Source of the DNA: an uncultured Gammaproteobacteria bacterium
GTDB lineage: Bacteria > Patescibacteriota > Microgenomatia > UBA10105 > UBA927
Direction of reading: 5' to 3'
Assembly: GCA_964445435.1 (NCBI GenBank)
Contig: CAYUKU010000005.1
Span: 6,627 to 70,626 of the forward strand
Length of the DNA: 64,000 nt
The translations under genes and the position numbers were made by a program. The first letter of the stretch is position 1, and every line of letters begins with the position of its first letter. Shown here one piece after another: positions 6,404-29,971 of the stretch. The notes beneath the pieces were generated by a model. That model saw only the letters and a program-made list of their open reading frames with translations. It had not been told where the DNA came from and did not search any database.

Positions 6404-6853
6404 ATGGCCAGTCCGCGCAGGCGCCACAAAATCCATTTCCAGCCCCTCTATTTGTGGGATTATGACGGCGTATGGGTACAGGCATCAAAAGATTCCTACT
6501 CCATCATGTGGGCGGCAATCGGCGGCATATTGGAAAAACAGGCACACCGTCCCGCCTCTGACATGGACGGCCTTAACTGGACCAAAATATTTGCCGATAC
6601 AAAGGGATTTACGGAACATACATTCGTTACCACCGTATTTGAAGCACTGGGGATTCAGCCGACTGACCGTGACCGCCTGTTTACGCATTTTATCCAGGAA
6701 CGCGCCGAACTTATCCGGTATTACAACGCGAAACATGGGCTTCGCAAGTTCGATGACCACAACGTCTATATCGACACCCATACGCTTGCAGTCAAACTGT
6801 CAGAGCGGTTTCCCGATGCCCTGCACGGACTAGTAACGGGTAACCCCCAGTGA
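6404..6853 (+). CDS. HAD-superfamily nucleotidase-like protein, N-terminal part; ends at an in-frame TGA
   Basis: LWDYDGVWV resembles HAD motif I (DxDGV, as in NT5C-type deoxyribonucleotidases). The reading frame continues into 6881-7393 across a single TGA. Confidence 0.45.
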   Translation: MASPRRRHKIHFQPLYLWDYDGVWVQASKDSYSIMWAAIGGILEKQAHRPASDMDGLNWTKIFADTKGFTEHTFVTTVFEALGIQPTDRDRLFTHFIQERAELIRYYNAKHGLRKFDDHNVYIDTHTLAVKLSERFPDALHGLVTGNPQ

Positions 6854-9483: not shown

Positions 9484-10314
9484 ATGACACAGGATCTCCG
9501 CATCGCCTTCATGGGCGATATTACCGCCGACAAATACATGGATACCAGTTCCGTGAAGTATGGCGGAGCTGCTCTCAATATGGCAATGTGGGCCAAACGC
9601 ATCGGGATTGTCCCGGAAATCGTTTCTGCGGTGGGGGATGATCAGATAGGAGACGAATTTCTCAACCTCCTTGTGGATGAGAATCTTTCCTCGGCGTGCG
9701 TCCAGCAGAAACCGGGAAAAACATCAGCCATTGAAATCTTCCTGGAGAACGGCGAACGGCGATATGGTACGTGGGAACCGGGCGTGCTTTCTTCATACCA
9801 TGTACGAACCGAAGATTTTGAGATTCTGCAGAATGTCGATGCTATCGCTATTACCGTCTACCCCGCATATCTCAATGTGCTGGAAGAGTTTTCTCAATGG
9901 AGACAAACACAGGCTCCTGAAGAGCGCCCGCTGCTATGCATCAATTACGGCGATCTGAAAGAATTCGGAAACAGTATCGATATTCCCAAACAATATATCG
10001 ATAGTGCGGATATTCTGGTATTTGGGCTGGATAGCGAGAAGGATGCTGCCATTATAAGGGACGTACAGACACTATCACGGCCGGATACGTTGATTGTCAC
10101 GACATTAGGAAAGCATGGTTCCCGCGTCCGCGTAGGGCTGGGAGAGTTTTTTCAGCCGGCGTTTGATGCACATGTTGTTGATACGACGGGAGCCGGAGAT
10201 TCGTTTCTTGTCGGATTTCTGTCGGACTACCTCACGCGGGCAGATGTATCCAAAGCCCTTATTGCGGGATCACAGCTTGCGGTCAAAGCCATTTCTACAA
10301 TCGGCGCGTACTAG
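9484..10314 (+). CDS. PfkB-family carbohydrate or nucleoside kinase (ribokinase-like)
   Basis: DTTGAGDSFLVGF is the PfkB signature 2. Confidence 0.8.
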   Translation: MTQDLRIAFMGDITADKYMDTSSVKYGGAALNMAMWAKRIGIVPEIVSAVGDDQIGDEFLNLLVDENLSSACVQQKPGKTSAIEIFLENGERRYGTWEPGVLSSYHVRTEDFEILQNVDAIAITVYPAYLNVLEEFSQWRQTQAPEERPLLCINYGDLKEFGNSIDIPKQYIDSADILVFGLDSEKDAAIIRDVQTLSRPDTLIVTTLGKHGSRVRVGLGEFFQPAFDAHVVDTTGAGDSFLVGFLSDYLTRADVSKALIAGSQLAVKAISTIGAY

Positions 10315-10723
10315 ATTTTCCGCTGCAGGATTGGCATATCCCGAAAAATTCGAGGGAATGGGATGTGACGGTAAACTTCGTCTGTTTTTCAACAACTCGT
10401 TCCAGATCCGCTTCCATAATTTCGGAAACGTCGCGCATGCTTCCGCATGACGTGCAGATGACATGATGGTGATGCGCCCGGTCAGCGCGTTCGTAGCGGA
10501 ACTTGCCTTCGCCCAATTCGATCCGTTTGACGAGTCCTGTCGTGACGAACACGTCAAGAATGCGGTATATGGTTACCGGATCGACGTCAAGTTTTCTGAC
10601 CGCCGGGTATGCGCGTACCTCTTCGACGCTCAAAGGGAGGCTTCCTTTAGTCAACGCCTCCATGACTGCTACCCGTGCCCTTGTCGGCCTGATGCCACTT
10701 TTCGCAAGCGAATATGTATTCAT
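10295..10723 (-). CDS. Fur-family transcriptional regulator (Fur/Zur/PerR)
   Basis: A helix-turn-helix N-terminus is followed by HHHHVICTSCG...CxxC metal-site motifs. Confidence 0.85.
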   Translation of the reverse strand: MNTYSLAKSGIRPTRARVAVMEALTKGSLPLSVEEVRAYPAVRKLDVDPVTIYRILDVFVTTGLVKRIELGEGKFRYERADRAHHHHVICTSCGSMRDVSEIMEADLERVVEKQTKFTVTSHSLEFFGICQSCSGKSSTRRL

Positions 10724-10817
10724 GACAGTATATTATGCAACTTATTTGCATCTGTCAAAATGGTGCGCTCGGAGTTTCTGACTTGACATACTGGTTTTGA
10801 CAATTCATAGTAAAAGT

Positions 10818-11696
10818 ATGTTCGATCAGCTAATTGCGTTTGTTCTCTTAGGGTTAGGCTTGAAGACGCCGCTCACCGAAAGCGCGCCTGCACGTGTCGC
10901 ATATTCACAGTCCCAACAGTCCGTTCTATCAAGCAGCGATTCAAACGATGACGATTCCGAGCACGATGGCAGCGGCGGGAGCTCTTCCGGCAGCAATACA
11001 TCGGGAAGCGGATCGGGAAATGACAACGAAGACGAAAAAGAGGATGACCATGACGGCGCTTCCGGAGCATTCGGACCGACGGGGATATTCCCTGCGAAAA
11101 ACAGGATTTCCATTCAGCTGAAGGAGGCACATGATATCTACCGTGCCGAGCTTCAGAAGGATCATGAGGTCTGGAACGGTGAGCTAAGAGCAAAACTCGA
11201 AGCCGCCAAGAAACAGCACGAAGCCAGACGCGAGGCGCTGAAAAAGAAGTTAACGACACTGAGAGACGAGCGCAAAAAGACGATTATCACCAAGCTTCAG
11301 GACCGTTTCGATGAGGTAAATCGGAAGCGTCTCGAGCGCATGACCGAGAATCTCAAGAAGATCGAAGAGGTTCTCATGCATATCGAGGAGAAGGCAGCTG
11401 AGCAAAAAGAGCAAGGCAAGGACACCTCATCTGTCGACACCGCCGTCGCAAGCGCCCATACGGCGATAGATGCGGCAAAGGCGGCCCTCACCACGCAGGC
11501 GGGGAAAGAATATGTGATTACGATCAACTCGGAAACGACGGCGAAAAACGACGTCGGCCAGACGCGCCGGACGCTCGAAGCGGATCTGAAAGCCGTGCAC
11601 GGGAAAATCGTCGCCGCGCGCAAGGCTGTAAGTAATGCTATCCGCGCATTAGCACGACTTCGCGGAGAAGAGATCCCTGAGGAGGTCATCAAATGA
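10818..11696 (+). CDS. secreted coiled-coil protein with Ser/Gly/Asp/His-rich low-complexity segment
   Basis: Signal-peptide-like N-terminus MFDQLIAFVLLGLGL. An acidic S/G/D/H tract is followed by a Lys/Glu-rich coiled-coil. Divergent from the Fur-family gene. Confidence 0.5.
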   Translation: MFDQLIAFVLLGLGLKTPLTESAPARVAYSQSQQSVLSSSDSNDDDSEHDGSGGSSSGSNTSGSGSGNDNEDEKEDDHDGASGAFGPTGIFPAKNRISIQLKEAHDIYRAELQKDHEVWNGELRAKLEAAKKQHEARREALKKKLTTLRDERKKTIITKLQDRFDEVNRKRLERMTENLKKIEEVLMHIEEKAAEQKEQGKDTSSVDTAVASAHTAIDAAKAALTTQAGKEYVITINSETTAKNDVGQTRRTLEADLKAVHGKIVAARKAVSNAIRALARLRGEEIPEEVIK

Positions 11697-12001
11697 AAAC
11701 AAAAATGCCTCTCTTGTTTCTTATCCCCATGATTGCCATCATTCTCGTCGTCGCGGGTGCCGCGCTTGTCCGCATGTTGTCCCGGCCGGCAACCGAAGTG
11801 GCACAGACGACGGAGTATCCCTCATTGGATGAATCGACGAACAAGCCTTCTTCGTTTTTGGGAAAACTGTTTGGCGGCGGTACGACGCCGGCCCCGACGC
11901 CGGCCTCGAGTGATGATCTCGCGCGGGAACTCAAAAACACCGTCGATGACGGGGGACAATCCGATTTTGACGCGCTAGAGAAGGAATCCGAAGGCCTGTA
12001 A
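11693..12001 (+). CDS. small membrane-anchored protein
   Basis: 102 aa with an N-terminal TM helix. Its start overlaps the upstream stop (ATGA). Confidence 0.4.
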   Translation: MKTKMPLLFLIPMIAIILVVAGAALVRMLSRPATEVAQTTEYPSLDESTNKPSSFLGKLFGGGTTPAPTPASSDDLARELKNTVDDGGQSDFDALEKESEGL

Positions 12002-12087
12002 GACCCCATCAAGCTTGACACCGCCTTCATCGTTGTCTACCATACTCTTGGAGGTACCGTAAAAGAGTGCGGAAATTGGAAATTTTT

Positions 12088-12245
12088 AAGCGTGTGGCCC
12101 GCCGGCGAGGCGGGATACGAGGGAAGGGCGTATCGAAATAATCTGCGGGTGCCCTTTGGTAGTTGCTCCCTACCACAACAGCGATTCGGAAACCTCCCGG
12201 TAACGGAAGAACAACGAAGCTGACGGAGTCCGCCTCTTATCATCG
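12088..12245 (+). ncRNA. glmS ribozyme-like 5' leader (glucosamine-6-phosphate-responsive self-cleaving riboswitch), putative
   Basis: A 230-nt leader sits between a TTGACA-17-TACCAT promoter (12015-12043) and the glmS ATG. It contains ACGAGG...ATCGAA...TCTGCGGGTGCCCTT, which parallels the B. subtilis core ACGAGG..UAUCGAAUU..UCGGCGGAUGCCUCC. It also has GGTAACGGAAG (compare GUAAGGA) and a GAAGGGC/GCCCTT stem. Confidence 0.45.
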
Positions 12246-12279
12246 AAAAATCGTTTTTTATTTTCCGAAGGAGTGTTCT

Positions 12280-14061
12280 ATGTGTGGAATTTTTGGCTAC
12301 GTGGGTCCGTCACCCAAGGCGACATCATTGGTTCTTAAAGGTCTTAAGGATCTTGAATATCGGGGGTATGACAGCTGGGGCATCGCCGCAGTTCCGGATA
12401 ATTCAAACGGGCACGGCAAGATCGTCGTGAAGAAAAAGACGGGGAAAATCGGCAACGCCACGCCGGAAGGGTTTCCCGCCAGCTCATTTGCCTTCGGGCA
12501 CACGAGATGGGCGACACATGGCGGTGTCACGGATATAAACGCGCATCCCCACCTGGACTGTACGGGGACTATTGCCATCATCCATAACGGCATTCTGGAA
12601 AACTATATGGAGATCAAGGAGAAACTTCTGAAGAAAGGTCACCGATTTATCTCCCAAACGGATACCGAAGTCGCGGTTCATCTCATCGAGGAATACGCCA
12701 AAACCATGCTTTTCAGCAAGGCGGTCCAGAAGGCATTCAATGAGATGACGGGTCTCAATGCATTCATTGCCATGAATACGAAGATTAAGCAGTTCGTCGC
12801 CGTGCGAAACGGCTCGCCATTAGTCGTCGGGTTCGGGAACAAGGAAAACTACCTGGCGTCAGACGCGGCCGCCCTTTTGCCGCATACCAAGCAGGTGCAT
12901 TTTCTTGAGGACGATGAGATGGCGATTGTTACACAAAAAGGCGCCATGATATTCAACGCGCGGACGGGAGCCCATGTCGCACCGCGTAAACAGCTTCTTA
13001 CCTGGTCCCTGGCGCAGGTGGAGAAAGGCAGTTATCCGTATTTCATGCTGAAAGAGATCCATGAACAGCCGGGAATTCTGGCGGATATCGCAGCAGATGG
13101 CGCCAACAGAGCGGTAGAATTGGCGAAGGTCGTGAAGAAAAGCCATGACGTTGCCATCATCGGTTGCGGGACGGCGAGCTACGCGAGTCTTGCCGGATCT
13201 ATCTTGTTTAACAAGATTGCCAAGCGGCCGGTCACGTGGGTGATCGGAAGCGAATTTGATGACGAGGTCCAGTTTTTGGGTCCGTCGAGTCTGGTTATAG
13301 CCCTGTCTCAGTCCGGAGAGACGATGGATACGCTTGAGGCAGTGCGCAAAGCCAAGAAGAAAAAGGCGAAGATTCTTTCCATCGTCAACGTCATGGGGTC
13401 GACCCTGTACCGCGAGAGTGATTATCAGCTTCTCATAGGTGCAGGTCCGGAGAAGGGTGTTGCTTCGACGAAGGCGTTTACCGGGAAAATCGCCCACACG
13501 CTTCTTCTGGCTTACGCGTCAGTCGGGAAGGTCGGGGATGGGCAAAAAATGCTGACCAAAGCAGCGCGTGTGGCCAAGGAAATACTGTCGGAGAAATCCG
13601 TTTCCCGGATTAAGACGCTTGCCAAGCGCATCGCCAAAAACGAACACGCCTATGTCATCGGCCGCGGCATGAGTTATCCAACCGCCCTCGAGACGGCGCT
13701 TAAGATCAAGGAGATCTCCTACATTCACGCGGAAGGGTTTGCCGCGGGGGAGCTCAAGCACGGAGTGATTGCGCTTATCGAAGAAGGAACGCCGTGCATC
13801 GCGTTTCTCCCCAACGACGAGACGTACGCAGCGAACCTGGCTGGCGCCATGGAGATGAAGGCGCGCGGCGGGTACATCATCGGGGTATCGCACAAACCCC
13901 ACGAGATATTTGATTACTACATTCCGGTGAAGGATGTGGGACCGGCAACGCTCATCCCCAACGTCATGGTTGCCCAGCTTTTGGCCTATTACCTGACGAT
14001 TGAGCGCGGGTTTGATCCCGACATGCCGCGCAATCTGGCCAAAAGCGTGACGGTAAAATAG
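12280..14061 (+). CDS. glmS: glutamine--fructose-6-phosphate aminotransferase
   Basis: Starts MCGIFGYVG (N-terminal Cys nucleophile) and ends with SIS domains. RBS AAGGAG is present. The ORF-track start at 12163 is too far upstream. Confidence 0.95.
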   Translation: MCGIFGYVGPSPKATSLVLKGLKDLEYRGYDSWGIAAVPDNSNGHGKIVVKKKTGKIGNATPEGFPASSFAFGHTRWATHGGVTDINAHPHLDCTGTIAIIHNGILENYMEIKEKLLKKGHRFISQTDTEVAVHLIEEYAKTMLFSKAVQKAFNEMTGLNAFIAMNTKIKQFVAVRNGSPLVVGFGNKENYLASDAAALLPHTKQVHFLEDDEMAIVTQKGAMIFNARTGAHVAPRKQLLTWSLAQVEKGSYPYFMLKEIHEQPGILADIAADGANRAVELAKVVKKSHDVAIIGCGTASYASLAGSILFNKIAKRPVTWVIGSEFDDEVQFLGPSSLVIALSQSGETMDTLEAVRKAKKKKAKILSIVNVMGSTLYRESDYQLLIGAGPEKGVASTKAFTGKIAHTLLLAYASVGKVGDGQKMLTKAARVAKEILSEKSVSRIKTLAKRIAKNEHAYVIGRGMSYPTALETALKIKEISYIHAEGFAAGELKHGVIALIEEGTPCIAFLPNDETYAANLAGAMEMKARGGYIIGVSHKPHEIFDYYIPVKDVGPATLIPNVMVAQLLAYYLTIERGFDPDMPRNLAKSVTVK

Positions 14062-14153
14062 TGTTAAGTGCAACCGCCGTGCAGACGGGAATTTCAAAGA
14101 CACGCTCACTGATGGTTGTCCGCACGTCGTTTGCTTTTGGGTGACCCGCTTTT

Positions 14154-14317
14154 AGCAGCGTAGCAAACAATTTTTTGCGACAACTGAGCGTTCGCATAAT
14201 GTCATGGAGTTTAATCGTGATATGCGAACGCTCACTTAGCGAACGACGGGAAGTACTCATCGATCAGTGATTATCATCAGGTGAGCAGGTCGCTGAAAAT
14301 TCGTTTGCGAAGCTGCT
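14154..14317. repeat. Family B nested-palindromic element, copy B1 (164 bp)
   Basis: Terminal inverted repeats AGCAGCGTAGCAAACAATTTT / AAAATTCGTTTGCGAAGCTGCT and inner stem GAGCGTTCGC / GCGAACGCTC. Lies between the convergent glmS and HD genes. Confidence 0.8.
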
Positions 14318-14328
14318 TCTGGAGGGCG

Positions 14329-14979
14329 TTAGTATTTAATCACAAATTCCTTGAGGAGTTTTTTCTCCGTCTTTCCGCCGATAATTGCCTTTACTTCGAA
14401 GTATTGCTCCACCCCTGAATGGGAGAGTTTTTCTTTCAGAAGCTCGTCGACCTGGAAGATGCCCGCCGAGTTGCTCATCGTGATGTAGATTTCAATCGGG
14501 CGGTCTTTGCCTTCTTTTATTTCCACGCCTTCGACGGCATACGCGGAGAGCGAATGGATATTTACTTTTCCTGCCTCATAGGGAATGCGGGAGCGGCCGC
14601 TACTCATATCAAGTGCGTCGGCGATCCGTACGATGCCGGCCTCTTTGGTAAGCGGTCTTCCGTCAGATCGGTGACTGATGATGGCGTGAAGCGTTTCAGA
14701 GATGACAATCGTTCGTTCCGAAATGGGCATAAACGAGAGCGTTTCCCGAAGAAGCGAATTTGCCAGAAACAGGCTATATGTTTCGTGGTCAATGCGGTGG
14801 ATGGACATCCCAAGATCATGGAGAATGCTTGCAAGTACGATGACCACTTCGGCATGCTGTTGGGTGAGTTTGTAGTCTTTCACGATGGACATCTGGATGT
14901 TGTTTTTCTCAAGAATCCGCGCAAGTCGAAGTGCGATATTTGCCACAATCTGGAAATGGACGGGTCCGTGATCGCTCAT
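14329..14979 (-). CDS. HD-domain phosphohydrolase (possibly a YfbR-like 5'-deoxynucleotidase)
   Basis: H...HD...H...D motifs: DHGPVHF, ILHDLGM, TLHAIISH, VRIADALD. The ORF-track N-terminus at 15489 overlaps the dNK gene, so the start was trimmed to the Met at 14979. Confidence 0.55.
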   Translation of the reverse strand: MSDHGPVHFQIVANIALRLARILEKNNIQMSIVKDYKLTQQHAEVVIVLASILHDLGMSIHRIDHETYSLFLANSLLRETLSFMPISERTIVISETLHAIISHRSDGRPLTKEAGIVRIADALDMSSGRSRIPYEAGKVNIHSLSAYAVEGVEIKEGKDRPIEIYITMSNSAGIFQVDELLKEKLSHSGVEQYFEVKAIIGGKTEKKLLKEFVIKY

Positions 14980-15177
14980 GCCCAGCCGGTCAATGGCGTT
15001 GACGTTGAGGATGTTCCAGAGCGTCACGATTTCTTCATTATTGTTTATCCGCTCAAGTGTTTCTGAGAGGAGTTTGTTACTCGCGGTCGGAACGTGGATG
15101 AGAGGTTTATCGGTAGTGTTCACTGGCACAGTATAGCAGAAAGGGTATGTTTGTGGTACAACAGTCAGGTAGTAACT

Positions 15178-15807
15178 ATGCGCAAAAGAAATTTGTATAT
15201 CTCCGTCATGGGTACGATGGGAAGCGGAAAGACAACCGCCGCCCGTCTCATCGCCCAAGAGCTTAAGTTTCAACTGGTGGAGGAAAATTTCGGCGAAAAC
15301 GCGTTTCTCCCCAGATTTTATGGAGACATGAACCGCTGGGCGTTCCATTCCCAGACGTTTTTTTTGATGGAGAAGATTACCCAGATGTTGGAAACCCCGA
15401 AAATGCTGGAAAAGGGGCCGGTCGTCCAGGATACGCCCATCCAGCAGGACGCGTTTTCTTATGCCAAGGCCCAGCATGTTCTCGGACATATTGATGATGC
15501 CGAGTGGAAACTGTATCAGAAGATTTACAAATCCTTCGAGCCGTATTTCCCCAAGCCCGATTGCATCGTTTTTCTGGAAACCTCAATTCCGTCGATTGCC
15601 GACCGCATCGAGAAGCGCGGGCGAGGGTATGAGCAGAAAATTCCGCAAAGCTACCTGGAACTTCTGGATATGCTCAATCACAAGTGGCTAACGGAAAACA
15701 AAAGCATCCCCGTCTTGACGGTGGCCACCGACGGACTCAATATCGTCACAAGCAAGGTCGCCAAAGAGGCGCTTCTCACAGCCGTAAAGAAGAAGCTGAA
15801 GCTTTAG
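15178..15807 (+). CDS. deoxynucleoside kinase
   Basis: P-loop GTMGSGKTT and the overall dNK/dCK-family pattern. Start trimmed to MRKRNLYISV. Confidence 0.8.
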   Translation: MRKRNLYISVMGTMGSGKTTAARLIAQELKFQLVEENFGENAFLPRFYGDMNRWAFHSQTFFLMEKITQMLETPKMLEKGPVVQDTPIQQDAFSYAKAQHVLGHIDDAEWKLYQKIYKSFEPYFPKPDCIVFLETSIPSIADRIEKRGRGYEQKIPQSYLELLDMLNHKWLTENKSIPVLTVATDGLNIVTSKVAKEALLTAVKKKLKL

Positions 15808-15850
15808 GTTGAATGCCTCTATCAATGTCATCGTGTTAACACGCTAATAT

Positions 15851-16552
15851 ATGCAGGATAAGCTGATGTCGGACATACGCGTAATCATTTGGGATTTCGA
15901 CGGGACGTTCTATCCGCAGAATCCCGCGGTAACTGCAGCGATGGAGGAAGGACAGTACCAAACAATCATGCGCCACAAGGGCTGGACGCATGAGCGGGCG
16001 AAAGAAGAATTCTGGAAGATATACCCTTCGCAAACGACAAGCGGAAATACCGCGGTGGGACGCATCTGCGGAATCACCACTGCTCAGGCGGGCGTGGAAA
16101 ACGAACAGGGATTTGATAGGCTTGCGTTTATCCCAAAGGATCACCATCTTCCCGAATTGTTTGAGAAGTTAAAAGGCTTCCGGCACTTCATTCTGGGAAA
16201 TGGCGTTCAAGCGAATTTGTTGAAAACAACCAAAGGGTTAGGCATTGATCACGTGTTTGAAGAGATCGTCACGAGTGAAACGGTAGGAGCCAACAAGCCG
16301 GATCCGGCGGGATTCCGGTATATCCTGAAAAAGACAGGGTTTGCGCCCCGACAGCATGTGATGGTTGGAGACCGCGAGGTGGTCGACCTTGCTCCCGCCA
16401 AAAAGCTGGGCATGCGCACCTGTCTCGTGACGTGGGGAGAGGGGTTTTCCGAACTGCCAACAACCGGTGAGAGCGTGGATATCACCATCCCAACGGTATA
16501 CGACCTGCCAGATCGGCTCCATGAAATTGCATCTGCAAGTCGCTTAGCATAG
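15851..16552 (+). CDS. HAD-family hydrolase (nucleotidase-like)
   Basis: IIWDFDGTF (motif I) and VGDREVVDLAPA (motif IV). The start could instead be the ATG at 15866. Confidence 0.7.
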   Translation: MQDKLMSDIRVIIWDFDGTFYPQNPAVTAAMEEGQYQTIMRHKGWTHERAKEEFWKIYPSQTTSGNTAVGRICGITTAQAGVENEQGFDRLAFIPKDHHLPELFEKLKGFRHFILGNGVQANLLKTTKGLGIDHVFEEIVTSETVGANKPDPAGFRYILKKTGFAPRQHVMVGDREVVDLAPAKKLGMRTCLVTWGEGFSELPTTGESVDITIPTVYDLPDRLHEIASASRLA

Positions 16553-27131: not shown

Positions 27132-27986
27132 ATGCTGTCACGATACGGTGAATGGTTAGATAACGCAGTGTGGGGTATACTCATCCTTCTTTTGGTTCCG
27201 GCAGGATTTGCCATCACCTCGTGGAACAGTTTGCCCGGATCGGGACTGTATGGCATCCGTCAGGTGATGGAGAAGGTATTGGTTGCCATTGCGCCCGGAA
27301 GTCAGGCGAAGGGGCAATTGTACGTCTCGTTTACGACCAGGGGAGCTCGGGATGCGGTTCAGGTCTTAAGCGATAACGGATCAACGGCGGGACTCACATA
27401 CCTCAACGCGCATGTTACCGCAGCGAAAGAAAATATCGAGAAAACTTCGGATGCGAAAGTCCGGGCCAAGCTTGCCCGGCAATACATCGCGACCCTGAGG
27501 GAAGCAAACTCGACACTTGAACAGCAGAAGCAGATTATGTCAGGCACAACCCCCCGCCGTGCCACCACTCCAAGGACGACTGCTGCGCCCACATCGCGTC
27601 CGAATAACGCAACATCAACGCCTGCGCCAAATTCCGGTAATCCGCCCCCACCTGATCCGGTTGATCAGATTGAGGATACGCAAAACCAAATTGAGGATAC
27701 GATTGAAGACCTGGAAGAAGAGGCCGCTCTGGATATTCCTCAAATGGAGGGCTTAACCGGGGATGTACCCCCTACGAGTACCAGTACTCCTATCCCGACA
27801 TTCACACCTACGCCCACTTCGCTCCAACAAATGAACAGTTTTGGCGCCGACCAGAATGAAGAGAATGATGACAATAGAGGTGGGAATAATAATCGCGGAA
27901 ACGATGACAACGATGGAAACAACAGTGGAGGCGAGGGGAACAGCGGCGGCGGCAATAGCGGTTCAGGACGGTCGGGAAACCACTAA
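27132..27986 (+). CDS. membrane-anchored secreted protein with Pro/Thr-rich and Gly/Asn-rich low-complexity C-terminus
   Basis: TM helix near the N-terminus, a PT-rich linker and a GN-rich tail. Confidence 0.45.
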   Translation: MLSRYGEWLDNAVWGILILLLVPAGFAITSWNSLPGSGLYGIRQVMEKVLVAIAPGSQAKGQLYVSFTTRGARDAVQVLSDNGSTAGLTYLNAHVTAAKENIEKTSDAKVRAKLARQYIATLREANSTLEQQKQIMSGTTPRRATTPRTTAAPTSRPNNATSTPAPNSGNPPPPDPVDQIEDTQNQIEDTIEDLEEEAALDIPQMEGLTGDVPPTSTSTPIPTFTPTPTSLQQMNSFGADQNEENDDNRGGNNNRGNDDNDGNNSGGEGNSGGGNSGSGRSGNH

Positions 27987-28030
27987 TGGGTTTTGTTGAA
28001 TCTTAGAGAGAACAGGTGTATACTGACAAG

Positions 28031-28175
28031 TGACATGTGTCCCGAGTACCGACCGGGACGATACAGTCCCGCTAAAAACGGGAACGGGTATGCCCGTAAC
28101 AGCTGCCAATGAGAAGTAAATAAGGTGGTACCACGAGTAACCGCTCGTCCTTATAGGGAAGGAGGCGGTTTTTTT
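28031..28175 (+). promoter_or_regulatory. T-box riboswitch leader (specifier CCG = Pro) with short Stem I, controlling csaA-proS
   Basis: Promoter TTGAAT-17-TATACT at 27996-28024. Stem I hairpin GTCCCG-aguaCCGAc-CGGGAC presents CCG followed by A. The T-box consensus AAGGTGGTACCACGAG includes the UGGN bulge. An antiterminator ACGAG/CTCGT + AAGG/CCTT alternates with a terminator hairpin ending in a U7 run just before the ATG. Confidence 0.55.
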
Positions 28176-28511
28176 ATGGCAACATATGATGATTTTTTGA
28201 AACTTGATATTCGGGTCGGGAAGATAATCACAGTTGACGATTTTCCAGAGGCGCGAAAGCCCGCCTACAAAATCACGATCGACTTCGGATCAGAGATTGG
28301 CACGAAGCGAAGTAGTGTCCAGATAGTCAAGCACTATAAGAAGGAGGATCTGCTTGGGAAAAAAGTCCTGGGTGTGGTCAATTTCCCTCCACGGCAAATC
28401 GGTCCTTTTCTATCAGAAGTACTTACGTTGGGTGTTCCCGATACTGATCATGAGTGTATACTGATAGTGCCGGACATGGACGATGCTGTTGTGGGCGGTA
28501 AATTATATTAA
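28176..28511 (+). CDS. csaA: tRNA-binding protein (CsaA / EMAP-like OB fold)
   Basis: LDIRVGKIITVDDFPEARKPAYKITIDFG. Confidence 0.8.
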   Translation: MATYDDFLKLDIRVGKIITVDDFPEARKPAYKITIDFGSEIGTKRSSVQIVKHYKKEDLLGKKVLGVVNFPPRQIGPFLSEVLTLGVPDTDHECILIVPDMDDAVVGGKLY

Positions 28512-28519
28512 GGAGCAGT

Positions 28520-29971
28520 ATGAAACAATCATTTGAAAAAAAGGAACTAAAAAAACGAAGCGAGAATCTTTCGGACTGGTATACGGACGTGATTCTCAAA
28601 GCGGAACTAGCTGACTACGCGCCGGTGAAAGGCACGATGGTTATCAGGCCTTATGGGTACGCAATCTGGGAACATGTCCAAGAGATTATGAACGGCTTCA
28701 TGAAGGCGGCCGGTATAGAAAACGCATATTTTCCGCTCTTTATTCCGCATTCGCTTCTTGAGAAGGAAAAGGAACATGTCGAAGGGTTTTCTCCTGAACT
28801 CGCCATCGTGACGATCGGTGGAGGGGAGAAGCTGAAAGACCCCCTGGTTGTGCGTCCCACAAGCGAGACGATCATGTACGAGATGTATAAGAAGTGGATC
28901 CAAAGCTGGCGTGATCTGCCGCTTCTTATTAACCAATGGAATAACGTTATCCGGTGGGAGAAGCGTACGTACCTTTTTATGCGCACGATGGAATTTCTGT
29001 GGCATGAGGGACACACGGCTCACGAAACGGAGAAAGACGCAGTCGACCTCATCATGAAGACCCTGAACTGGTACAAAACGATCTACGAAGAATATTACGC
29101 AATTCCCGTTATCATCGGGTATAAGAGTCAAGCGGAAAAATTTGCGGGTGCGAAGGATACCTACACGGTGGAAATGCTTATGCCGGACGGCAAGGCGCTC
29201 CAGGGCGCCACATCTCACAATCTGGGTCAGAATTTTTCCGTCCCCTTTGAGATTAAATTCCAAAACCGGGAGGGAAAAGAGGATTTCGTCTGGCAGACCT
29301 CCTGGGCGATTACCACGCGGTCGATAGGGGCGCTCGTACTGACGCACGGAGACGATTCTGGGCTTATCATTCCTCCGAAGATCGCACCTATTCAGGTGGT
29401 TATCATGCCCATAACCAGGAAAGATTCGGCCAAGACGAAAGAGCTTCTTGCCTACTGCGGGGAGATGAAAGAAGCACTGAATAACGGTGGTATCAGAAGC
29501 AGGTTTGACGAGCGTACCGAGCCAAGCGTCGGACGAAGGTTTAACGAATGGGAGCTCAAGGGGGTACCACTCCGGTTTGAAGTCGGGGAGAAAGAGCTTG
29601 CCAATCGCAGTGTGACCATAGCCCGCCGGGATACCGGAGAAAAAACAACGGTTGACCGTCAGGACATGCTTACGACGACCGAGAAGCTTCTCAAGGAAAT
29701 TCAGCAGTTCCGATTTGGGGTCGCGAAGCGTTTCTTGGAGACAAACACGCATGACGCATCCACCTACGAAGCATTTAAGAAGATTATGAGCTCGACCCGC
29801 GGTTTTATCCGTGCCCTCTGGTGTGAGGAAAGAAGTTGTGAGGCGGCGATAAAAGAAGAAACCAAGGCTACGACGAGGTGCCTGCCGCTTGACGAAAAAG
29901 AAGTAAACGGTGTATGCGTCCACTGCGGTAAGCCTGCAAAACATCGTTGGATCTTCGCCCAAGCATACTAA
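28520..29971 (+). CDS. proS: proline--tRNA ligase (archaeal/eukaryotic type)
   Basis: Class II aaRS motifs and a C-terminal Zn-binding CxxC...CxxC. Confidence 0.95.
   Translation: MKQSFEKKELKKRSENLSDWYTDVILKAELADYAPVKGTMVIRPYGYAIWEHVQEIMNGFMKAAGIENAYFPLFIPHSLLEKEKEHVEGFSPELAIVTIGGGEKLKDPLVVRPTSETIMYEMYKKWIQSWRDLPLLINQWNNVIRWEKRTYLFMRTMEFLWHEGHTAHETEKDAVDLIMKTLNWYKTIYEEYYAIPVIIGYKSQAEKFAGAKDTYTVEMLMPDGKALQGATSHNLGQNFSVPFEIKFQNREGKEDFVWQTSWAITTRSIGALVLTHGDDSGLIIPPKIAPIQVVIMPITRKDSAKTKELLAYCGEMKEALNNGGIRSRFDERTEPSVGRRFNEWELKGVPLRFEVGEKELANRSVTIARRDTGEKTTVDRQDMLTTTEKLLKEIQQFRFGVAKRFLETNTHDASTYEAFKKIMSSTRGFIRALWCEERSCEAAIKEETKATTRCLPLDEKEVNGVCVHCGKPAKHRWIFAQAY

Follow-up and report, generated by a model that had tools for sequence, protein, structure and literature searches.

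The glmS locus and its leader

We analysed a 64,000-nucleotide stretch of DNA (the window, whose coordinates are used throughout), which covers positions 6,627 to 70,626 of contig CAYUKU010000005.1 in assembly GCA_964445435.1, and examined the leader that precedes its glmS gene at 12050–12279. The leader and all of its features lie on the plus strand, as does glmS (12280–14061). The product of this gene is glutamine–fructose-6-phosphate transaminase, a protein of 593 amino acids (MCGIFGY...) that matches the profiles NF001484 (647.6 bits) and TIGR01135 (622.4 bits). The mechanical open reading frame call begins inside the ribozyme described here, at a TTG codon (12163), and is an artefact; the real start is the ATG at 12280, preceded by the Shine-Dalgarno sequence AAGGAG (12268–12273). 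To our knowledge, no natural ribozyme other than that of glmS is known to use a metabolite as its cofactor, and most descriptions treat it as a feature of Gram-positive bacteria.

Scanning the whole window against Rfam 15 gave three matches at the gathering score: two tRNAs and one to the glmS ribozyme family (RF00234). The latter spans 12078–12232 and scores 52.4 bits (gathering score 37, E 3e-9) over model positions 1–167, untruncated. It ends 5' of the glmS ATG and on the same strand, which is the position of a 5' untranslated region. The original prediction had proposed a glmS-ribozyme-like leader upstream of glmS, and this match, above the curated gathering score, bears the proposal out, as the TIGR01135 match (622 bits) does the naming of the gene. 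The motifs on which it had been built are all present: the promoter elements TTGACA and TACCAT, ACGAGG at 12117–12122, AUCGAA at 12132–12137, UCUGCGGGUGCCCUU at 12142–12156 and GUAACGGAAG at 12200–12209. Its supporting helix of GAAGGGC (12123–12129) with GCCCUU (12151–12156) is helix P2 of the ribozyme, and its candidate cleavage site, A12089^G12090 in AAGCG (12088–12092), is the site given by the model alignment. One equivalence did not survive: GUAACGGAAG had been taken as the counterpart of Bacillus GUAAGGA, which belongs to the J3/4–P4 segment, whereas in the model alignment GUAACGGAAG falls on the L4 GNRA tetraloop (GUAA) and the 3' strand of P4.1. Judged by its sequence, the leader before glmS is a genuine glmS ribozyme. 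It belongs to a known RNA family, and any annotation that uses Rfam would pick it up.

The sole promoter-like site on the plus strand of the region (12015–12043) comprises a −35 element TTGACA (12015–12020), a 17-nt spacer and a −10 element TACCAT (12038–12043), with 10/12 consensus matches, and predicts a transcription start at about 12050. The window and 12 loci of the type described below for the Candidate Phyla Radiation (CPR) share a site of the form TTGAC(A/T)-N17-TAnnAT (N18 in L009; related loci are given by L numbers), which lies at −64 to −105 relative to the cleavage site. By this comparison, the promoter of the glmS leader is kept in position across relatives. The intergenic gap before glmS measures 278 nt, whereas the median gap, by a crude gene call, is ∼53 nt. 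The leader had been called unusually long; it is long but not exceptional for the window, where 14 of the 66 gaps reach at least 200 nt.

Architecture of the ribozyme

The canonical glmS ribozyme has eight helices, with P1, P2, P2.1 and P2.2 forming the core and P3, P3.1, P4 and P4.1 as accessory helices (PMC1635283). The Rfam structure line draws a local hairpin in place of the core pseudoknots and does not encode P2.1, P2.2 or P3.1. In the published pairing scheme, the true P2.2 consists of C2–G56, G3–C55, C4–G54, C5–G53, a bulge at position 6 and G7–C52, and P2.1 pairs C28–G29–A30 with U43–C44–G45 (PMC7125110). All eight helices can form in the window leader, the pseudoknots P2.1, P2.2 and P3.1 included, and the centroid fold of 12050–12279 contains P1, P2, P3, P4/P4.1 and a further helix, P0, described below.

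The predicted scissile bond, placed by the model alignment, lies between A(−1) at 12089 and G1 at 12090, within an AGCG that is invariant in the 24 leaders compared in the next section. G1 and the 5' strand of P2.2 (GCGUGUG, 12090–12096) precede the P1 hairpin (12098–12114), which in the RF00234 alignment is formed by CCCGCC, the loop GGCGA and GGCGGG. The core strand UACGAGGG (12116–12123) carries A27 and C28 in its ACGAGG, again invariant in the 24 leaders, and provides the 5' strand of P2.1, CGA (C28–G29–A30, 12118–12120). The 3' strand of P2.1, UCG (U43–C44–G45, 12133–12135), lies in the cofactor pocket. P2 pairs AAGGG (12124–12128) with CCCUU (12152–12156), and the 3' strand of P2.2, CUGCG (C52–G56), stands together with G57 in CUGCGG (12143–12148). 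With these strands, P2.2 in the window comprises C2–G56, G3–C55, U4·G54, G5·U53, a bulged U6 and G7–C52.

The P3 hairpin (12157–12175) pairs UGGUAG (12157–12162) with CUACCA (12170–12175) and holds within its loop the 5' strand of P3.1, GCUCC (12165–12169), which pairs with GGAGU at 12225–12229. In the P4/P4.1 domain (12179–12222), delimited by the RF00234 alignment and the centroid fold, P4 is formed by CAGC..UUCG with CGAA GCUG and P4.1 by CUCCCG with CGGAAG, and the L4 loop is the GNRA sequence GUAA (12200–12203). Single mutants at G1, C2, G3, A27, C28, G56 and G57 have been used as non-cleaving variants (PMC7125110); all of these nucleotides are intact in the window (12090–12092, 12117–12118 and 12147–12148) and, like A(−1), are invariant in the 24 leaders.

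Comparative support for the fold

To compare the predicted pairs across relatives, we aligned the cores of 24 leaders (the window, 20 CPR-type and three classical) without gaps over 108 columns, using blocks of fixed length, because MAFFT misplaced the 3' strand of P2.1 in insertion-free copies when given the natural sequences. P1 tips, optional insertion hairpins and the P4 domain were removed from the blocks, and the tail with the 3' strand of P3.1 was placed by the YYGC motif beside it, not by its complementarity. Three leaders (L002, L010 and L015) keep an offset of 1–2 nt. In this alignment 93.4% of 687 cells pair, as against 31.6–47.5% when the 3' partners are slid by 1–3 columns. Changes on both sides occur at 19 of the 30 pairs; the mean over shuffles is 10.9, and none of 500 shuffles reaches 19.

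The individual helices behave consistently with this. P3 pairs in 99.2% of cells (4/6 pairs change on both sides), P2 in 97.5% (3/5), P2.2 in 97.5% (2/5) and P1 in 84.7% (5/6). P2.1 pairs in 98.6% of cells and is essentially invariant, and in P3.1, paired in 85.7%, all five pairs covary. For P4.1, aligned separately in 21 leaders, compensatory changes are present at six of six predicted pairs.

A helix joining the leader to the tail

Outside both the eight-helix definition (PMC1635283) and the Rfam consensus structure, a helix of 9 bp, which we call P0, joins the leader 5' of the cleavage site to the tail just after P3.1. Its 5' strand, AAGAG(U)GCGG (12063–12072, with U12068 bulged), pairs with CCGCCUCUU (12230–12238), which directly abuts P3.1. 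In an unedited MAFFT alignment of 16 leaders and their tails, P0 pairs in 73.7% of cells, compared with 36–56% in slid controls, and its two central pairs exchange between GC, AU and GU (10, 5 and 1 leaders at one pair; 10, 3 and 2 at the other). With each strand anchored on its own motif, all 72 cells of the four core pairs (18 leaders) are paired, in the combinations GCGG/CCGC, GCAG/CUGC, GCGA/UCGC, GCAA/UUGC and ACGG/CCGU, together with G·U intermediates. The purine/pyrimidine extension of the helix runs on without a break in seven loci, and in most others a bulge of one nucleotide shifts it.

A P0-like arrangement also appears in unrelated sequence in L079 (AAGAAGACU/AGUCUUCUU). In a metagenome scan for the CPR-type signature, only nine of 120 matches came with the remainder of the core and the others arose by chance; P0 is present in four independent metagenome copies: L139 (AAAAAGCGGA/UCCGCUUUUU), L134, L166 and L173. 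As far as could be checked, P0 would be a previously undescribed helix, supported by covariation.

Two further sequences of the leader flank P0. Between its 5' strand and the cleavage site lies a linker, AAAUUGGA (12073–12080), which reads AAUUGGA or AAUUG in most CPR-type leaders and for which we found no pairing partner. The predicted transcript opens with a Shine-Dalgarno-like GGAGG (12050–12054), noted by eye in the upstream sequences. Most CPR relatives have AAGGAGG; the motif, as GGAGG or AAGGAGG, stands a few nucleotides after the predicted start in L003, L005, L009–L011, L013 and L021, and in the Rokubacteria leaders L052, L063 and L064 it appears as GGAAGGAGG. A leader peptide following this GGAGG was considered and set aside, with no start codon conserved at a suitable spacing on inspection by eye. 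The motif might instead be a 5' stabiliser that cleavage removes.

Host lineage and distribution

Among contigs of one genome per species in GTDB, the closest GlmS proteins (60–80% identity) come from metagenome-assembled genomes named Patescibacteria group or Candidatus Gottesmanbacteria, followed at ∼50% by those of Levybacteria-type CPR, Chloroflexota and Rokubacteria. The assignment does not rest on glmS alone, because neighbouring genes match Gottesmanbacteria-like loci as well: the deoxynucleoside kinase at 69–83%, the HD-domain protein at 64–76%, and also the HAD hydrolase and the PfkB kinase. These matches place the host in the CPR, or Patescibacteria, as a Gottesmanbacteria-like bacterium.

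Gottesmanbacteria-like glmS loci with the CPR-type ribozyme occur in contigs titled ‘uncultured Gammaproteobacteria bacterium’ (L001, L005, L008, L009, L011 and others), and on such contigs this label looks like an automatic misassignment. The flanks of glmS that are common to Gottesmanbacteria-like loci contain a PfkB kinase, two hypothetical proteins, an HD-domain protein, a deoxynucleoside kinase and a HAD hydrolase. Relative to these flanks, the promoter–ribozyme–glmS unit is inverted in the window (9484–16552) as compared with L002 and L004.

A ribozyme precedes glmS in 20 of the 24 Gottesmanbacteria-like loci judged, 14 of them at the gathering score and six by parsing of the core; the 24 include L014, which is cut off. 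Of the 20 closest loci, 11 have an RF00234 match above gathering directly 5' of glmS; L021, L079 and L080 have one too. In L001, L007, L009, L019, L020 and L022 the ribozyme scores below the threshold and has the same UAAGCGUGUGGCC cleavage context. Several relatives fall below the Rfam gathering score, and would be missed by standard annotation, because of long insertions in P1 and the core loops. P1 extensions reach ∼200 nt, and most CPR relatives carry a hairpin of 11–70 nt between the P2 5' strand and the P2.1 3' strand, as well as a second core hairpin, of 18–93 nt, between P2.1 and P2.2. One or both are present in L001, L002, L003, L005, L007–L011, L015 and L017–L022. The window, L004, L013 and the metagenomic L173 have neither, with linkers of 2–3 nt in their place, and the window copy represents the minimal form.

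Beyond this clade, glmS genes of Chloroflexota and Rokubacteria/Methylomirabilota are preceded by classical ribozymes that score 60–94 bits, and no RF00234 match was found among the Levybacteria-, Curtissbacteria- and Woykebacteria-type loci scanned. In the literature searched we found no paper linking glmS ribozymes with CPR/Patescibacteria.

Proposed mechanism and its alternatives

Considered jointly, these results make it very probable that the leader acts as a canonical glmS ribozyme-riboswitch, in which cleavage triggered by glucosamine-6-phosphate leads to decay of the message by RNase J and P0 serves as a folding clamp. Transcription would most likely start near 12050 from the TTGACA-17-TACCAT promoter, and the RNA from 12090 to 12229 would fold into a double-pseudoknot core (P1, P2, P2.1 and P2.2) that P3/P3.1 and P4/P4.1 support. 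On accumulating, glucosamine-6-phosphate, which GlmS produces, would bind the pre-formed pocket as cleavage cofactor. Cleavage between A12089 and G12090 would then shed a 5' fragment of ∼40 nt, ending as in this class in a 2',3'-cyclic phosphate, and leave the glmS mRNA with a 5'-hydroxyl end, and, by analogy with Bacillus, RNase J would degrade the cleaved mRNA, giving negative feedback on GlmS synthesis. P0 most probably closes the ribozyme domain as a clamp during folding, stacking on P3.1. The sequences themselves show the family membership, the covarying helices, the conserved essential nucleotides, the genomic context and the spread across the clade; we infer that cleavage depends on the ligand, how it proceeds chemically, that RNase J follows and what P0 does.

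For the decay step, Collins et al. reportedly found in 2007 that Bacillus RNase J1 degrades the product via its 5'-OH end. The glmS message is rapidly degraded after cleavage (PMC5473149). An RNase J pathway is plausible in the host because at least 90% of CPR genomes are reported to keep rnj (PMC12641178).

A number of observations weigh against this reading. P2.2 of the window has tandem wobbles, U4·G54 and G5·U53, at positions where the consensus has C–G pairs, and mutations of pair 5–53 were strongly detrimental in a core construct of T. tengcongensis (PMC7125110). Position 26 is U rather than the G of the 26*7–52 base triple, a feature found across the clade except in L079 and L080, which have A. 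P4.1 contains one C–A mismatch, and the window scores 52 bits where classical relatives score 60–94. Three close relatives (L006, L012 and L016, GlmS 62–68% identical) are without the ribozyme; their glmS starts ∼10–25 nt from a promoter-like site and is nearly leaderless, which implies, from sequence comparison, that the ribozyme has been lost within the clade. Beyond its four core pairs P0 aligns poorly, with strict-column pairing of only 73.6% over all 12 positions because the one-nucleotide bulge offsets most of the extensions. The core blocks of the 24-leader alignment were curated by hand with the structure in mind, which somewhat inflates the pairing percentages; the fairer evidence is that of the slid controls and of the pseudoknots that were never modelled. 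Lastly, no open reading frame of at least 150 amino acids with the RNase J motif HxHxDH was found in the 64-kb window, a result that is uninformative.

Several of these points could also be explained if the leader were an evolutionary relic, derived from a glmS ribozyme but having lost cleavage or the response to glucosamine-6-phosphate, with glmS expressed constitutively. The P2.2 wobbles, U26, the P4.1 mismatch, a model score below that of the classical forms and the complete loss of the element in some relatives would all fit such a history. However, the catalytically essential nucleotides are invariant across the 24 leaders, and compensatory substitutions maintain the helices, pseudoknots included, between loci whose GlmS proteins are 60–80% identical, which points to purifying selection on the structure. 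The deviations are moreover common to the whole clade and not scattered: G1–C2–G3–U4–G5 with U53–G54–C55–G56 is found throughout the CPR clade where the classical ribozymes have C4–G54 and C5–G53, and at pair 5–53 the difference between the two (GU versus CG) is compensatory. In the deep-mutational study (PMC7125110), pair 5–53 is poorly conserved in nature and mutations of G26 interact with G7–C52. The combination in P2.2 and at position 26 is plausible as a co-adapted variant, and not as decay, because of this natural variability at 5–53 and this interaction of G26. We regard a relic as quite improbable.

Equally slight is the likelihood that cleavage controls translation rather than decay, with the freed tail CCGCCUCUU pairing with the glmS Shine-Dalgarno sequence and blocking it. 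The tail is complementary to the leader (−15.2 kcal/mol) and weakly so to the Shine-Dalgarno region (−6.2 kcal/mol), and in the window the predicted probability that the Shine-Dalgarno sequence is unpaired is 0.09 for the isolated 3' product and rises to 0.35 when the leader is present. Similar shifts are calculated for L021 (0.07 to 0.35) and L001 (0.23 to 0.40). In most of the other 14 relatives that bear a Shine-Dalgarno sequence, however, this value hardly changes, if at all, and in two it moves in the opposite direction. The Shine-Dalgarno sequence is missing altogether from four loci that have a P0-like helix, the distance between tail and Shine-Dalgarno sequence varies from 51 to 177 nt, a helix of 9–10 bp would not readily release the 5' fragment, and any pyrimidine-rich strand is trivially complementary to a Shine-Dalgarno sequence. 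As a conserved mechanism this switch was rejected, the shift not being conserved among the relatives.

Chance resemblance in an ordinary untranslated leader, in favour of which one could cite a nested minimum free energy of 12050–12279 no better than that of shuffles (z 0.48), is next to impossible and is refuted by the E of 3e-9 over the full model, the position exactly 5' of glmS, and the conservation and covariation of the element in dozens of related loci. The z-score is uninformative because the RNA is pseudoknotted, and thermodynamics alone would not have flagged this glmS ribozyme.

Within the preferred reading of a cleaving, glucosamine-6-phosphate-responsive ribozyme, a wider idea can be voiced, which we hold to be rather doubtful. 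CPR glmS ribozymes of the Gottesmanbacteria type may form a distinct subfamily in which P0 tethers the 5' cleavage fragment to the body of the mRNA beside P3.1, and in which P0 and the Shine-Dalgarno-like 5' end make up a removable protective cap. Cleavage would open the message to attack by RNase J or, in certain members, let the tail mask the ribosome-binding site. The complementarity of leader and 3' flank in Chloroflexota and Rokubacteria, described below, hints that an enclosing helix might be a general but overlooked part of glmS ribozymes outside the Firmicutes.

Relation to known glmS ribozymes

The window ribozyme resembles the classical members of RF00234 (those of Bacillus subtilis, B. 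cereus, B. anthracis and Thermoanaerobacter tengcongensis) in its eight helices, its A^GCG context and its place in the glmS 5' untranslated region, and shares with them the ACGAGG, UCG and GCGG core strands and the GNRA L4 loop. It differs from them in U4·G54, G5·U53 and U26, and in its host, a CPR bacterium and not a Firmicute. The ribozymes of Chloroflexota and Rokubacteria/Methylomirabilota (L028–L076) occupy the same position, before GlmS proteins ∼50% identical to that of the window, but unlike it have the classical GCGCC...GGCGG P2.2 and G26.

The leader is complementary to the 3' flank in these as well, among the Chloroflexota in L028, L030, L031, L034, L036, L039 and L040. In five Chloroflexia loci GGCGGGAA is complementary to UUCCCGCC, and GCGGGUA/UACCCGC together with CUGGGA/UCCCAG is also seen in Chloroflexota. 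In Chloroflexota and Rokubacteria the 3' partner lies ∼20–30 nt beyond P3.1, whereas P0 of the window abuts it. The duplex z-scores in the classical loci are weak (+1.0 to −2.7) because the sequences are GC-rich. This pairing may be an analogous enclosing helix.

McCown, Roth and Breaker are said to have described, in 2011, glmS variants of Deinococcus-Thermus with additional stems inside the catalytic core. The core hairpins of the CPR relatives appear to be the same kind of tolerated insertion, with the window copy free of either.

These findings leave the understanding of the class unchanged; three points deserve to be recorded, namely the host lineage, the clade-specific variant of P2.2 and position 26, and the covarying leader–tail helix. 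The ribozyme appears to be intact and under selection in an ultrasmall CPR clade, where almost nothing is known of gene regulation, and offers a concrete, testable regulatory RNA for these bacteria. Its presence there fits the placement of the CPR with Chloroflexota and other Terrabacteria. The clade supplies natural variation at positions rated sensitive by deep mutational scans (4–54, 5–53 and G26), in addition to P0, and could be useful for ribozyme-folding studies and for the design of glmS-based switches as genetic tools in Patescibacteria.

Other structured RNAs in the window

The original prediction had also credited the organism with two RNA classes typical of Gram-positive bacteria, the second being a T-box. 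The glmS half of this claim stands; the T-box is plausible but weaker, the RF00230 match at 27965–28155 scoring 42.2 bits against a gathering score of 93 (E 5.8e-6). This candidate contains the T-box sequence AAGGUGGUACCACG (28122–28135, +) and is followed by a terminator-like hairpin ending in a run of seven U (28161–28175, +). Downstream on the plus strand lie an open reading frame of 111 amino acids (28176–28511, MATYDDFLKLDIRVGKI...), which presumably resembles a tRNA-binding domain of the CsaA/Trbp111 type, and proS (28520–29968; TIGR00408, 573 bits). The two tRNA genes of the Rfam scan are on the minus strand at 519–590 and 732–803, with scores of 59.7 and 65.5 bits.

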